Notes under the pieces: model-generated
Told to the model about the DNA's origin: nothing
Seen by the model: the letters and a program-made list of their open reading frames with translations, nothing else
The model's database searches: none
Translations under genes and position numbers: made by a program
Shown: in pieces, positions 12,374 to 64,000 of the stretch
Position numbering within the stretch: the stretch's first letter is position 1
Layout: each line of letters opens with the position of its first letter
NCBI GenBank assembly: GCA_964639235.1
Contig: CAZXDN010000006.1
Location: forward strand, 7,477-71,476
Source of the DNA: an uncultured Methanotrichaceae archaeon
GTDB lineage: Archaea > Halobacteriota > Methanosarcinia > Methanotrichales > Methanotrichaceae
DNA: 64,000 nucleotides
Direction: 5' to 3'

Positions 12374-12466
12374 CTTTTTATGGGCTCTCCCCTTTGCAGT
12401 CCCTGATCTCTGCAATTATCGCTGATTAGCGAAACATTTATCGTTTAGGAAGCCTCTGTTCCTGCG

Positions 12467-13060
12467 ATGGGCATCATTTCGATCTTGAGGCTGCTGCCGA
12501 TTGTCTTTCTCTTGCTTTCTGTAGCAACAGCCAAGGAGCCTGCGACATTTGGCAGGAGCGTGGACGACATGGTTGGCGCTTTTTCCATTGAGAAGACTGT
12601 GAAGCTGGGAGATCGCGGATTCTTCTTTGGGTCTGAGGATGCCGATCCCCTGGCGAGCCCTCCAAGCCTGGATAAGATTTCAGCCGAGATAGGAGACGAT
12701 TTGGCTCCGAGCCTCTCAGGTTTTGAGATCGATCCAGTGGCTGTGGACGCTGCATCAGGAGAGAAAGTGGGCATTACAGCCCACGTCCTGGACGACCAGG
12801 CTGGCCTTGGCAGCGCATCGACCATAAGGTTCGTCAGCCCTTCTGGCTCACAGAGCGCAGATCTGACCCTTGCTCACCTGGTATCCGGAACCTCTAAAGA
12901 TGGAATTTACTCAGAGAGCATAGCCCTTGACCAGGACAGCGAGAAGGGCACCTGGGCACTGGAGTCGCTCACGCTTGTAGACGGCGCTGGAAACAGCAGG
13001 GTCCTTACTGGAGACGATCTGGCAGAGATGAACCTGCCACACCAGTTCACAGTAGCTTGA
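12467..13060 (+). CDS. Secreted protein of unknown function
   Basis: It has a signal peptide (MGIISILRLLPIVFLLLSVATA). The C-terminal half is beta-rich. No family was recognised. Confidence 0.55.
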   Translation: MGIISILRLLPIVFLLLSVATAKEPATFGRSVDDMVGAFSIEKTVKLGDRGFFFGSEDADPLASPPSLDKISAEIGDDLAPSLSGFEIDPVAVDAASGEKVGITAHVLDDQAGLGSASTIRFVSPSGSQSADLTLAHLVSGTSKDGIYSESIALDQDSEKGTWALESLTLVDGAGNSRVLTGDDLAEMNLPHQFTVA

Positions 13061-60148: not shown

Positions 60149-60634
60149 CTATCTTGCTGCCATGATCTCAGTGGCCATGAGAAACCCTATTGCCCTTTCT
60201 GCCAGAGGATATCTTCCTACCAAAGCTTTGAACTGCCTTCCGTGGTTGGGCTGGATCAGGTGTGCCAGCTCGTGCACTATCACATAGTCCTCTACCCATT
60301 GAGGCATTCCCGCAAGCCTTGTGCTGATCCTTATGGTCTTGTCTGAGACTGTGCAAGAGCCGCGTCTCTTCTCCTGGCGGCTGGAGTACTTGATGCTCTT
60401 CCAGGAGAGCCTTCCGTCGAAGTATCTCTCGTTCAAGAGCCTGGCCCTCGCGTCCAGGTAAAAGTCATCCCTTTGGGGCATCTTCTTCTCAAGCCTGGAC
60501 CTGAGCTTGGATATGTGATCCTGAAGTGCTACATCTGATATAGAAGCAGGTGCCAGAACCTCCATCGAACCGTTAACCACTCTGGCCTGGATGGTCTTTC
60601 TTCTGCGGGCGGACTTCTTGACGATTACGTTCAT
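60149..60634 (-). CDS. DUF45/YgjP-like (SprT/WLM-related) zinc metallopeptidase
   Basis: The HExxH motif is in VIVHELAHLIQPNHGRQF. The Met at 60634 gives 161 aa. It lies 64 bp downstream of the small secreted paralogue on the same strand. Confidence 0.75.
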   Translation of the reverse strand: MNVIVKKSARRRKTIQARVVNGSMEVLAPASISDVALQDHISKLRSRLEKKMPQRDDFYLDARARLLNERYFDGRLSWKSIKYSSRQEKRRGSCTVSDKTIRISTRLAGMPQWVEDYVIVHELAHLIQPNHGRQFKALVGRYPLAERAIGFLMATEIMAAR

Positions 60635-60698: not shown

Positions 60699-61139
60699 TC
60701 AGACGCAAGGCATCCAATCAGTGCTTATCTCACCGCATGTGGAGTTAGACCAGAGGAGGACGAACTTCTCTATGTTGAAGACTCCTACCAGGTCCTCCAC
60801 ACTTCTTCCCCACTCTGCGTGGCGGCCGTGACTGTCTGCCTGGGGGTCCACCGACCTCCAGGAGATGTGGGCGCGTCCAATGACATTGGAGTTGATGGAA
60901 GCCTCGATTCCGCCGCCTTCTTCAGAATTGCTGGTCCTGACCTTTGTGCTCATCTCGAGGTGCTCCGCATCTGAGTAGACCTCTGTGAAAGACTCGCCTG
61001 TGTCGTAGTTCTGGACGCAGAGCTTTGACTCCCACTTCTGGTCTGCAACCCCGCCGTAAAAGCCAACTGGCATCACAGCGGATGCACAGCCTATCATGGC
61101 CACAGAGGCGGTTATCAAAGCAATCAGCTCCATCTTCAT
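60699..61139 (-). CDS. Small secreted protein, paralogue family copy 1 (unknown family)
   Basis: The Met at 61139 follows GAGGATGA. The signal-like N-terminus is MKMELIALITASVAMIGCASA. The C-terminal about 65 aa is nearly identical to the 63382-63843 product (EASINSNxxGRAHISWRSVDP...SHGRHAE.GRSVEDLVGVFNIEKFVLLWSNST.GEISTDWMPCV*). Confidence 0.6.
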   Translation of the reverse strand: MKMELIALITASVAMIGCASAVMPVGFYGGVADQKWESKLCVQNYDTGESFTEVYSDAEHLEMSTKVRTSNSEEGGGIEASINSNVIGRAHISWRSVDPQADSHGRHAEWGRSVEDLVGVFNIEKFVLLWSNSTCGEISTDWMPCV

Positions 61140-61314
61140 CGAGCTATCATCCTCGTATCGGTGATTGTCGGACCCATTTTTGAACTTGTTGGGCGATTTT
61201 ATGAAATTGTCGACAGACGGGGTCTGGAGAACTTTTATTTCTTCATCCATGTCAGTATATAAAAAGAACGTAAGTTATTTATCTATTCAGAGGCAACCTA
61301 AGAAGGGGAGTACA

Positions 61315-63288
61315 ATGGAATCTGATGAGATCAAGTCTATCAGGTCGGCTATTCAGGAGAAGGGGCTCTCGTGGTCTTCTGGAGTCACGTCCGTCTCCAA
61401 GCTCTCTTTAGACCAGAAGAAAAAGAGGCTGGGCCTGTTCATAAAAGAAGAGAAGATGAAGCTAATTCAGAAGGAGATGGCAGATGAGGGCGCCAGGATT
61501 GCGAGCCAGAGCCAGGCCAGGGCCTCCATCTATCCTTCTGCCTGGGACTGGAGAAACGTCTCTGGCAAGGACTGGACGACGAGCATCAAGAACCAGGGAG
61601 ACTGCGGCGCGTGCGTTGCGTTTGCAACTGTGGGCGCCATAGAGTCCAACCTGGAGATATTCAAGAGGGATTCCTATCTGAGTCCCGACCTCTCTGAGGC
61701 AGACCTCTTCTTCCAAGGCTGCGGCCAGTGCTGTGATAATGGCTGGGACTTCACGCCGGCTCTGAGGTACGCCAAGAATAACGGCATACCGGATGAAGCC
61801 TGCTATCCCTGGGATTCTACTTCCGGTGCCTGTCCTGATAGAGATAAGAGGCTCATCAAGATAGAGGACTGGAAGACCGTCTCCACAGAGTCGCAGGCAA
61901 AGGAGTGGATCAGCACCAGAGGCCCTCTCATCTCTGGGATGAACGTCTACGAGGACTTCTTCTACTATCGCGGAGGCATTTACAAGGTCGCTGCTGGCGC
62001 CCACATAGGGGACCACGCCATAGTGATCGTGGGATACAACAACAACGACAAGTGCTGGATTTGCAAGAACAGCTGGGGTGCTGGCTGGGGAGAGAACGGC
62101 TGGTTCAGGATAGCTTATGGCCAGAGCGGAGTTGGCCAGAACTTCTACTTCTATGCGGTCTCTTTCTCTGCAAGCGACGACATACTGGTCTCCAAGAGCG
62201 GCTGGGCCAGGGCCAGGTTCAAGGGCAAGGAGACTGCCTTTGACGACGAGGTGAGGCTCTACAGCCCAAAGGACCAGTCCATCTTCGTGGCCACAAGCAA
62301 GAACCTGGGCAAGGTCTTCGACCTGGGAAGCTTCTCGACTGGAACGAGGCTCGCATTTGCATTGAAGACTCCTGACGGCCACACCTACTACACAGATGCG
62401 TCTCTCAATGGCGATGCCTGCGACCACGTGAAGAAGGTCCAGCTGGGGACGAACAAGTGGGAGCTTCGCTGGGAGGACCTCTACGGCTTGGGCGAGCAGG
62501 ACTACAACGATGTCGTGATGGAAGTCGAGATAATAGACAGGGTGAACAACGACATATCTGTGCCCAAGGACGGGAGGGTCATAGCCACTTTCAAGAGCAA
62601 GGGAACGGCCTTTGACGACGAGTTTGGCCTCTACAAGCCATCTGAGAAGCTTATCTTCAAGGCCACTGACGCCAACTTAGGCAAGACTTTTGATCTGGGA
62701 ACGTTCAAGGCAGGCACCTCGCTGACTTTTGCGCTCAAGACGTCACAGGGCTACACCTACTATACTGATAACGTGCTAAATCCGGATTCTTACGCTCACC
62801 TCAAGAAGGTGCAGACAGGGACCAACAAATGGGAGCTTCGCTGGGAGGACGGATACGAGCTTGGGGACAAGGACTACAACGACGTTGTTGTGGTAATTGA
62901 GGTGTCTCCAATTACCGATGACGATGTGGTGATGCCCGTTGACGGAAAAGTCTCTGCCAAGTTCTACAGCAAGGGCACTCCCTTCGAGAACGAGTTCATC
63001 CTCTACCGGCCTGAGAGCAAGTCAGTCTTCAAAGCCTCAAACCAGAACCTGGGAAAGACCTTCGATGTTGGAACCTATGCAGCTGGCACCAGGCTCGTCT
63101 TCGGGCTGAAGACGCCCAATGGCACCACCTTCTACACAGACAGCTCTCTTAACTCGGATGCAAAAGACCACGTCTTCAAGCTGCCTCTGGGAGACCTCAA
63201 GTGCCAGCTCAGGTGGGAAGATCTCTACGGCCTGACAGATAGGGACTACAACGACGTGGTGGTGGAGATAACCATAAAGCCAAGCTGA
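61315..63288 (+). CDS. Papain-like (C1) cysteine peptidase fused to three tandem DUF4114-like repeats
   Basis: The Met at 61315 follows AAGGGGAG. The catalytic Cys is in QGDCGACVAFA (Cys codon 61622-61624), the His in DHAIVIVGY, and the Asn/Trp in NSWGAGWGENGWFRI. Three repeats of about 125 aa (about 62176-62535, 62536-62910 and 62911-63285) each end ...KWELRWEDLYGLG(E/D)xDYNDVV. There is no N-terminal hydrophobic signal. Confidence 0.85.
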   Translation: MESDEIKSIRSAIQEKGLSWSSGVTSVSKLSLDQKKKRLGLFIKEEKMKLIQKEMADEGARIASQSQARASIYPSAWDWRNVSGKDWTTSIKNQGDCGACVAFATVGAIESNLEIFKRDSYLSPDLSEADLFFQGCGQCCDNGWDFTPALRYAKNNGIPDEACYPWDSTSGACPDRDKRLIKIEDWKTVSTESQAKEWISTRGPLISGMNVYEDFFYYRGGIYKVAAGAHIGDHAIVIVGYNNNDKCWICKNSWGAGWGENGWFRIAYGQSGVGQNFYFYAVSFSASDDILVSKSGWARARFKGKETAFDDEVRLYSPKDQSIFVATSKNLGKVFDLGSFSTGTRLAFALKTPDGHTYYTDASLNGDACDHVKKVQLGTNKWELRWEDLYGLGEQDYNDVVMEVEIIDRVNNDISVPKDGRVIATFKSKGTAFDDEFGLYKPSEKLIFKATDANLGKTFDLGTFKAGTSLTFALKTSQGYTYYTDNVLNPDSYAHLKKVQTGTNKWELRWEDGYELGDKDYNDVVVVIEVSPITDDDVVMPVDGKVSAKFYSKGTPFENEFILYRPESKSVFKASNQNLGKTFDVGTYAAGTRLVFGLKTPNGTTFYTDSSLNSDAKDHVFKLPLGDLKCQLRWEDLYGLTDRDYNDVVVEITIKPS

Positions 63289-63381
63289 CCTCTCAAATCG
63301 CTTTTGGAAACTTTTTTGGAAAAAAGCAAGGATTTAGTTAAGTTTCGCGCATGTATATCGGCAATCCTGATGCGAAGGCCA

Positions 63382-63843
63382 TTAGACGCAGGGCATCCAG
63401 TCTGTGCTGATCTCTCCAGGAGTTGAGTTGGACCACAGGAGCACGAACTTCTCTATGTTGAAGACTCCGACCAGGTCCTCCACACTTCTTCCCAGCTCTG
63501 CGTGCCGGCCATGGCTGTTTGCATTTGGGTCCACCGACCTCCAGGAGATGTGGGCGCGGCCCACGAAGTTGGAGTTGATGCTAGCCTCAAGAAAGCCTGA
63601 TATCGGGAGACTCTCTTTGCCAGATGAGGCAGTCTTGATCCGGGTGCTCTTGTCCAGGCTCTCCAGGTCAGAGTAGCTCTCTGTCAGCACTGCGCCTATA
63701 TCGTAGTTCTTGACTGTGACTGCGCCTGTCTGGTCGCCTGTGGAAGCCTCGATCGAAGTGAAATTGATGCCAGATTGTGCCACTGCTGAAGCACAGGTTG
63801 CCATCAGGGCTATGACTGCCAGTGTGACTATCTCATTTTCCAT
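63382..63843 (-). CDS. Small secreted protein, paralogue family copy 2
   Basis: The ATG at 63843 follows GGAGAAG (the TTG at 63858 is possible). The signal-like segment is IVTLAVIALMATCASAVA. It is homologous along its full length to copy 1, with runs of 24-32 identical nucleotides in the 3' third. Confidence 0.6.
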   Translation of the reverse strand: MENEIVTLAVIALMATCASAVAQSGINFTSIEASTGDQTGAVTVKNYDIGAVLTESYSDLESLDKSTRIKTASSGKESLPISGFLEASINSNFVGRAHISWRSVDPNANSHGRHAELGRSVEDLVGVFNIEKFVLLWSNSTPGEISTDWMPCV

Positions 63844-63976
63844 GCCTTTCTTCTCCAAGACTGCAATTCTTCAGGCAGGTCTTCTTTTAGAGGTTCATTG
63901 AGCGGTCTCCTGAACTCCTGGATACCCACTGACCTGTCATCTATTCAACCTGTTGGCATCCGTACTCTGTTAAGCC

Positions 63977-64000
63977 TCAGACGCAGGGCACCCAGTCGAA
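63977..64000 (-). CDS. 3' end of a third copy of the small secreted paralogue family (truncated by the window edge)
   Basis: The reverse complement of 63977-64000 reads ...F D W V P C V stop, compared with ...TDWMPCV stop in copies 1 and 2. At the nucleotide level, TCAGACGCAGGGCACCCAGTC compares with TTAGACGCAGGGCATCCAGTC in copy 2. Confidence 0.4.
   Translation of the reverse strand, partial: FDWVPCV

Follow-up and report, generated by a model that had tools for sequence, protein, structure and literature searches.

A chromosomal array of predicted N-terminally truncated sheath-protein paralogues in an uncultured Methanotrichaceae archaeon

Methanothrix ranks among the major sources of biogenic methane. 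An amyloid sheath surrounds its filaments and shapes growth, division, contact with syntrophic partners and virus resistance. Here, we analyzed a stretch of 64,000 nucleotides from an uncultured Methanotrichaceae archaeon (the window; contig C6:7477-71476 of a 3.1-Mb, 153-contig assembly), the right-hand end of which carries an array of genes for small exported proteins. The original prediction could not place this protein family. Through homology to Mthe_0668 (ABK14458.1), we now place it in the Methanothrix sheath-forming (SH) protein family, and on sequence grounds the short array genes are N-terminally truncated paralogues of this major sheath protein. The SH family itself was already published in 2024 and is not new. 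What our analysis adds is that a widespread short subclass is the major sheath protein cleanly shortened from its N-terminal end, that this short class is cellular while the long forms move between hosts and viruses, and that gene conversion swaps 3′ ends between neighbouring copies and thereby breaks short-read assemblies. Our results yield testable ideas about ring cross-linking and minor sheath components.

The closest described system is the SH family of Methanothrix itself, whose core was described as amyloid-like, with two six-stranded antiparallel sheets (Medvedeva, Borrel and Gribaldo 2024, ISME J 18:wrae225, PMC11576556). In the same study, SH proteins are also defined by many copies per genome and by clusters of near-identical neighbours, SH genes have no conserved gene context, and SH-like proteins occur in viruses of sheathed archaea. 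Mthe_0668 and Mthe_0667 (ABK14457.1) are the two most transcribed sheath proteins, with Mthe_0668 at the top (PMC11576556), and an independent transcriptome study places their expression at 104-265 and 52-100 times the median, respectively. In Methanospirillum hungatei, SH subunits are proposed to associate edge to edge through their beta-sheets to form rings, and disulfides are proposed to link these rings; of the two Cys in each subunit, one sits on a sheet and the other on a flexible linker (Wang et al. 2023, Nat Commun 14:6720, PMC10593813). MspA or 'MspB' (Mthe_1069, ABK14853.1), described using mass spectrometry (Dueholm et al. 2015), is also a sheath-associated amyloid protein of Methanothrix, but it is a different protein of 575 amino acids (aa) and is a secondary component according to the 2024 study.

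The array proteins resemble Mthe_0668 (PMC11576556) in their signal peptide, their all-beta ribbons including the GRSVEDLTGVFSIEKF ribbon, their NST sequon and their DW(L/M)PC end. Their genes likewise behave as those of Mthe_0668-type SH proteins, being multi-copy, clustered, near-identical in stretches between neighbours and restricted to the sheathed family. They differ from Mthe_0668 in being N-terminally truncated and in lying away from the main sheath locus of the genome. The likeness to the M. hungatei protein lies in the proposed edge-to-edge assembly of beta-sheet subunits into rings, and the difference lies in the large helical cap domain of the latter.

Relation of the array proteins to the major sheath protein

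Copies 1 and 2 of the array lie in minus-strand open reading frames (ORFs) at 60699-61250 and 63382-63858 in the window ORF list, and we took as their starts the Met ahead of the hydrophobic signal sequence. Copy 1 accordingly spans 60699-61139 (146 aa; ATG at 61139, stop at 60699-60701), with a signal peptide at about 61074-61139, a mature part that begins MPVGFY and an 18-residue tail, LWSNSTCGEISTDWMPCV, at 60702-60755. Copy 2 spans 63382-63843 on the same strand (153 aa; ATG at 63843, stop at 63382-63384), with a signal peptide at about 63778-63843. As the original prediction held, the two are homologous end to end (58% identity, E 6e-60, BLASTP). Their amino-acid identity is 37% in the N-terminal part and 86-95% in the C-terminal part, with a single difference across the last 37 residues. 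The exact nucleotide runs that had been noticed between them were recovered as 26, 24 and 32 nt, all within the 3′ half.

Both copies match the C-terminal part of full-length sheath proteins. Copy 2 aligns with residues 100-243 of Mthe_0668 at 49% identity over 144 columns (E 9e-42). For copy 1, the identity is 50% with residues 100-242 of the viral protein vir154_00011 (E 2e-52) and 46% with ABK13877.1, a 139-aa short form from M. thermoacetophila PT. Elsewhere in the genome, four long forms of 210-236 aa, counted from the first plausible start, lie on contigs C46, C40, C118 and C51, and two distant relatives of the family lie on C7 and C106. Weaker family matches occur inside giant DUF11-type surface proteins of 2,000-3,200 aa in the same genome. 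Among the viral SH-like proteins in Supplementary Data 1 of the 2024 study (PMC11576556), one matches the C46 long form at 68% identity over the full length (E 4e-131). The C118 long form (236 aa) shares 78% identity (E 1e-133) with a 243-aa M. thermoacetophila PT protein. By exact look-up the latter is ABK14458.1, and the adjoining 271-aa protein is ABK14457.1. At C118:742-3644 (locus L006), the Mthe_0668-like gene (236 aa) is followed by an Mthe_0667-like gene (262 aa, ending PCEGIDC) and a gene for a 401-aa secreted protein. The PT sheath locus has the same order, and the third gene in both encodes a secreted protein of ~380-400 aa. Given the 78% match to Mthe_0668 and the shared gene order, we take C118 to hold the main sheath locus of this genome. 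The Mthe_0668-type and Mthe_0667-type families are themselves weakly similar but collinear over their full length (hhalign E 7e-4, probability 26%).

Scans of the short and long forms against Pfam, NCBIfam and PHROGs matched no family, and the genes may therefore stay 'hypothetical' in automated annotation. A word-indexed search returned 23 proteins, all of them hypothetical, and a profile search of Protein Data Bank (PDB) sequences gave no match below E 0.7. Two proteins from a representative search, P0092 and P0168, were rejected as family members, their matches being spurious low-complexity repeats.

The family is all but confined to Methanotrichaceae. A profile of the short forms found between 1 and 21 matches in every one of the 105 Methanotrichaceae genomes, which cover 16 of 16 genera, and gave weak matches in 4 of 292 sampled genomes from the same phylum outside Methanotrichaceae. 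An exhaustive profile search of 1.84 billion representatives matched 167 clusters. In a species-representative genome collection, every one of 50 related loci belongs to Methanothrix or to a Methanotrichaceae metagenome-assembled genome, and short-type matches occur in at least 10 genera, including the thermophile M. thermoacetophila.

The viral SH-like proteins vir154_00011, vir375_00035 and SRR8449814_2_85414_cir_103 (PMC11576556) belong to the same sequence family as the short forms. The viral members that we found are full-length long forms of 239-282 aa, whereas the array proteins are chromosomal and short. Long forms were present at 30 IMG/VR viral loci, one of them between DNA polymerase, primase and helicase genes, and a search of IMG/VR with two independent pattern sets found no short forms. 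In a tree of the shared module, the long forms of this genome nest among viral sequences and the short forms make up cellular clades. The viral loci, this nesting and the proposal that viral SH-like proteins weaken the sheath at egress (PMC11576556) could suggest that the short forms are themselves virus-related, either as domesticated viral SH-like proteins or as host decoys against them. Such an origin is barely credible, however, given the absence of short forms from IMG/VR, the chromosomal location of the array and the lack of any match to the viral loci among the neighbours of the copies, SH genes aside. A provirus origin of the array was also rejected, as no neighbour matches viral loci and the surrounding genes are chromosomal. 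The array is flanked by a histidine-kinase gene and ordinary chromosomal genes.

Variations on the family architecture were seen in viral and metagenomic sequences. Five viral long forms (IMG/VR loci L076, L078, L085, L087 and L088) extend past WLPC-x by a short hydrophobic stretch, for example WLPCLMGLQLFS. The metagenomic protein P0024 (303 aa) carries a full long form, without a signal peptide, behind an N-terminal ubiquitin-like sequence (MQIFVKTLTGKTI...). The metagenomic protein P0062 (1442 aa) contains about eight sheath-module matches with permuted sub-motifs, in which EYMPVSYQTGTYDQKW stands before GSGNVIT and GVGY.

Truncation, predicted fold and a probable role in the sheath

In every comparison, the short forms consist of a signal peptide followed by the last ~130 residues of the long form (matched at ~100-243), and they lack the first ~80 mature residues, which comprise ribbons 1 and 2 and half of ribbon 3. 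The junction between signal peptide and core is constant across clades at MPxSFY, the counterpart of EYMPVSYQTG in the long forms. The short forms bear an export signal of the Sec type, read from the sequence in copies 1, 2 and 4 and in 20 or more homologues, with a charged start, a hydrophobic stretch of 12-15 residues and an A-x-A-type site before MPxSFY.

To describe the fold of the family we rely on the long form. The mature C46 protein, modelled with AlphaFold2 from a 54-sequence alignment, is predicted to be all-beta (predicted local distance difference test, pLDDT, 89.4; predicted template modelling score, pTM, 0.84), with strands at residues 3-23, 31-53, 70-105 (kinked), 110-133, 144-169 and 175-198. 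These are followed by a disordered tail of 16 residues at 199-214, GNSTCGSISTDWLPCV, which holds the NST sequon and the W-x-P-C end. The long-form ribbons carry central Gly-rich kinks (KGVGY, SGTGN, VIGVAH and LTGVFS). Sequence alignment places the start of the short-form core midway along ribbon 3, so that ~3.5 ribbons (the second half of ribbon 3 and ribbons 4-6) remain, together with the tail.

Conservation across the whole family is highest in the last beta-ribbon together with the flexible, sequon-bearing, Cys-ended tail. Every one of 72 short forms has the penultimate Cys (W-[LM]-P-C-x), and 70 carry an NxS/T sequon in the tail. Of the 67 in which the ribbon-3 position (KLCVxNY) is readable, 46 have a Cys there, and in copy 2 this Cys of beta3 is replaced by Thr (VTVKNY). 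The original prediction had offered metal binding, processing or attachment as roles for the conserved His/Arg-rich stretch and terminal Cys. Metal binding finds no support and was rejected, because the motif, which falls in the predicted beta5-beta6 turn, reads SADSRGVYGRS in the M. thermoacetophila short form and contains no His. An archaeosortase-type sorting signal (PGF-CTERM or PEF-CTERM) was likewise rejected, as all 72 short forms end one residue after the Cys. A lipobox lipoprotein was rejected as well, as a signal-peptide Cys occurs in copies 1 (IGC) and 2 (ATC) only and is absent from copy 4 and most homologues. Attachment fares better: a ribbon Cys and a flexible-tail Cys are laid out as in M. 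hungatei, which suggests the same use, and by this analogy an inter-subunit disulfide is a plausible function of the terminal Cys.

Taken together, the array probably represents four chromosomal short SH paralogues that are exported and join the sheath as minor, narrow subunits, with the adjacent peptidase genes as bystanders. After export, the short forms would join the cross-beta rings via the conserved edge of ribbon 6 (GRSVEDLxGVFxIEKF). The tail would be N-glycosylated at the near-invariant NST, and the penultimate Cys would form an inter-subunit disulfide, possibly with the ribbon-3 Cys.

Several considerations weigh against this proposal or limit its reach. A subunit with 3.5 of the 6 ribbons might fail to integrate into the sheath, or might block its growth. 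About 30% of the short forms lack the ribbon-3 Cys, so its pairing with the tail Cys is not general. An AlphaFold2 model of copy 2 from a shallow alignment of 23 close homologues reached a pLDDT of 47.6 and is unreliable, and the fold of the short forms therefore rests on homology to the long-form model. The six kinked ribbons of that model appear compatible with the published pair of six-stranded sheets, a comparison made from strand lengths and the published description and not from measured coordinates. Foldseek searches with the long-form model against the PDB and BFVD found no similar fold (TM < 0.26), the matches being meaningless long hairpins of pore-forming proteins, and the PDB holds no entry for the Methanospirillum SH protein. 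The family also shows no sequence or profile similarity to Methanospirillum SH, which was validated by cryo-electron tomography and for which an alignment is published, so the link between the two depends on the published structural comparison. Lastly, we infer the sheath integration, disulfide and glycosylation of the short forms, and likewise their very presence in the sheath.

The short class also seems to have been catalogued already. Table S2 of the 2024 study (PMC11576556) contains GCF000014945_00080, an entry of 139 aa for the M. thermoacetophila genome annotated '1 core', as well as Methanotrichales entries of 148-160 aa. ABK13877.1 is also 139 aa long and has a similar approximate gene position, and this entry appears to be the M. 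thermoacetophila short form, a match made by length and approximate gene order only, as the 139-160-aa entries are given without printed sequences. A short class with a truncated core is not discussed in that paper (PMC11576556), and the locus tag and expression of the M. thermoacetophila short form were not found in the mBio 2023 supplements.

A more specialized role can be drawn from the same features, namely that the short forms are a dedicated half-core class that controls sheath architecture instead of building it, by capping or terminating rings, tuning circumference, marking sites of hoop insertion or filament splitting, or lining plugs. Such half-width subunits would dock through the ribbon-6 edge and the Cys tail, both retained, while offering a different edge on the other side. 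Ribbons 1-3a are missing from the short forms, and with them the NYMYEK..GVGY edge, which is invariant among the long forms. The ~30% of short forms without the ribbon-3 Cys all retain the tail Cys, which would make them one-armed cross-linkers. The N-terminal part changes quickly, copies 1 and 2 being 37% identical there and 86-95% identical at the C-terminus, and small SH variants have been suggested to connect hoops or support plugs (PMC11576556). If true, this role would offer the first molecular handle on the growth and division of an amyloid tube. It is purely inferential, however, and a narrower structural subunit explains the same facts, and we therefore regard it as unlikely.

Copy number, gene conversion and selection in the array

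A third copy had been predicted at the window edge, and this is borne out: positions 63977-64000 on the minus strand read FDWVPCV followed by a stop, and the frame continues beyond the window for 155 codons in all, to about position 64444 in window-equivalent numbering (C6:71453-71920). Copy 3 is 37-42% identical to copies 1 and 2. Its frame (locus L001) is open through a good signal peptide but has no ATG, GTG or TTG ahead of it, the codons there being ATA AAA TCA AAA CTT, and an orthologue from another sample, P0037, is 92.7% identical and has a Met start. Copy 3 is thus either a recent pseudogene, a user of a non-canonical start, or the product of an assembly error.

Extending the contig to count the copies, as the original prediction had advised, revealed a fourth beyond copy 3. 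The very end of C6 holds the last 17 codons of a further copy, and the final 55 nt of this contig match exactly the opening 55 nt of C89, which starts with a complete copy of 156 aa. The assembly contains 72 such end-to-end 55-nt links, which are k-mer overlaps. On the basis of this exact overlap among 72 of its kind, we consider the copy on C89 to be copy 4, C6 and C89 to be neighbours, and the array to have four copies. The 72 links also imply that many contig breaks in this assembly are repeat-induced graph junctions that could be joined. Directly 3′ of the copy 4 stop, a unit of ~19 nt (TGATATTCTCACTTGAT-like) is repeated head to tail four times (L001:2750-2830; C6:72110-72190).

The identity between neighbouring copies had been attributed to recent duplication or gene conversion. 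We compared sites with the same amino acid for use of a different codon, in the last 40 codons and elsewhere. For copies 2 and 4, the attribution holds: synonymous differences occur at 4 of 38 sites in the last 40 codons and at 22 of 41 elsewhere (p = 4e-5), and the synonymous divergence (dS, Nei-Gojobori) is 0.25 in the last 40 codons and 2.5 in the N-terminal part. The two share an 85-nt identical tract (63384-63468, minus strand, in copy 2; nt 4-88 of C89 in copy 4), which we assign to gene conversion, and are about 50% identical in nucleotides outside it. This tract is longer than the assembler k of 55, which is the likely reason for the contig break. The long forms on C46 and C40 also differ between the last 40 codons and the rest (p = 0.001).

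For the pair on which the idea was based, copies 1 and 2, it fails. Synonymous differences are as common in the module (11 of 38) as in the rest (16 of 50; p = 0.82), and on these counts a recent conversion between the two was rejected. In their last 40 codons, the ratio of nonsynonymous to synonymous divergence (dN/dS) is 0.05 at a dS of 0.78, and across the conserved part dN/dS is 0.05-0.12 at a dS of 0.6-0.8. Given the equal synonymous rates together with these values, the shared module of copies 1 and 2 is old and owes its likeness to strong, long-term purifying selection, which acts on ribbons 5-6 and the tail, and not to a recent duplication or conversion. In the tree of the shared module, copies 1, 2 and 4 group together (support 96/94) and not with their positional orthologues, a grouping that fits longer-term concerted evolution of the 3′ module.

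These data also bear on whether the short genes are functionless remnants, in decay since a partial duplication of the major sheath gene. Decay would account for the missing canonical start of copy 3, for a frameshifted copy in a relative (G010) and for a copy number that varies from 1 to 4 among relatives at the array locus. However, all 50 fetched loci hold intact short ORFs with their own signal peptide, these span at least 10 genera, the MPxSFY junction is constant, and the conserved module has a dN/dS of 0.02-0.12 at a dS of 0.6-1.4. Decay is accordingly disfavoured for copies 1, 2 and 4, and as an account of the short genes in general we judge it highly improbable; copy 3 may be decaying.

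Neighbouring peptidase genes and a secreted protein with a sheath-like ribbon

Two peptidase genes that do not belong to the family adjoin copies of the array. The first, at 60149-60634 on the minus strand, encodes a DUF45/YgjP-like HExxH metallohydrolase (PF01863, E 4e-21) and, counted from its conserved Met, begins 64 bp beyond the end of copy 1, in the same orientation. The second, at 61315-63288 on the plus strand, encodes a papain-type C1 peptidase with three DUF4114 repeats (PF00112, E 1e-41) and lies between copies 1 and 2, transcribed divergently from the former and convergently with the latter. The arrangement is as originally reported, and it led to the suggestion that the short proteins are substrates, inhibitors or, we might add, cofactors of these enzymes.

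The synteny does recur, in that DUF45 is found at 7 of 50 related loci and C1 at 3 of 50. DUF45 directly follows a short form in L015, L016, L017, L019, L020 and L034 and lies 3 kb off in L018, and in L011, L021 and L060 a C1-DUF4114 gene and a short form are transcribed convergently. About 40 of the 50 loci, however, have neither gene within the fetched flanks. In L025, which holds a member of the largest short-form clade on a complete chromosome, the neighbours encode an Obg-like GTPase, an FrhB-like protein, an aldo-keto reductase and a HAD hydrolase, and the long forms and distant copies of the present genome adjoin unrelated housekeeping genes. The locus also varies among close relatives: G010 has C1, one intact short copy and the frameshifted copy; G003 has DUF45, an intact short form and a C1 N-terminal remnant of ~165 residues (L095:9110-9573); and G002 has two short forms around DUF45 and no C1 gene. 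Moreover, both peptidases lack a signal peptide and would thus not be expected to encounter the exported short forms, and the short forms have no inhibitor-family signature among Pfam or NCBIfam models. A tie to the peptidases is therefore very unlikely, and the DUF45 and C1 genes appear to be bystanders retained through inherited gene order and not part of a functional module.

A further gene in the window encodes a 203-aa secreted protein (12449-13060, plus strand) in which FGRSVDDMVGAFSIEK directly follows the signal peptide and precedes a DUF7743/MG2-like Ig-type domain. The FGRSVDDMVGAFSIEK segment is a near copy of the last beta-ribbon of the sheath family, and the protein might dock onto the sheath by adding a strand.

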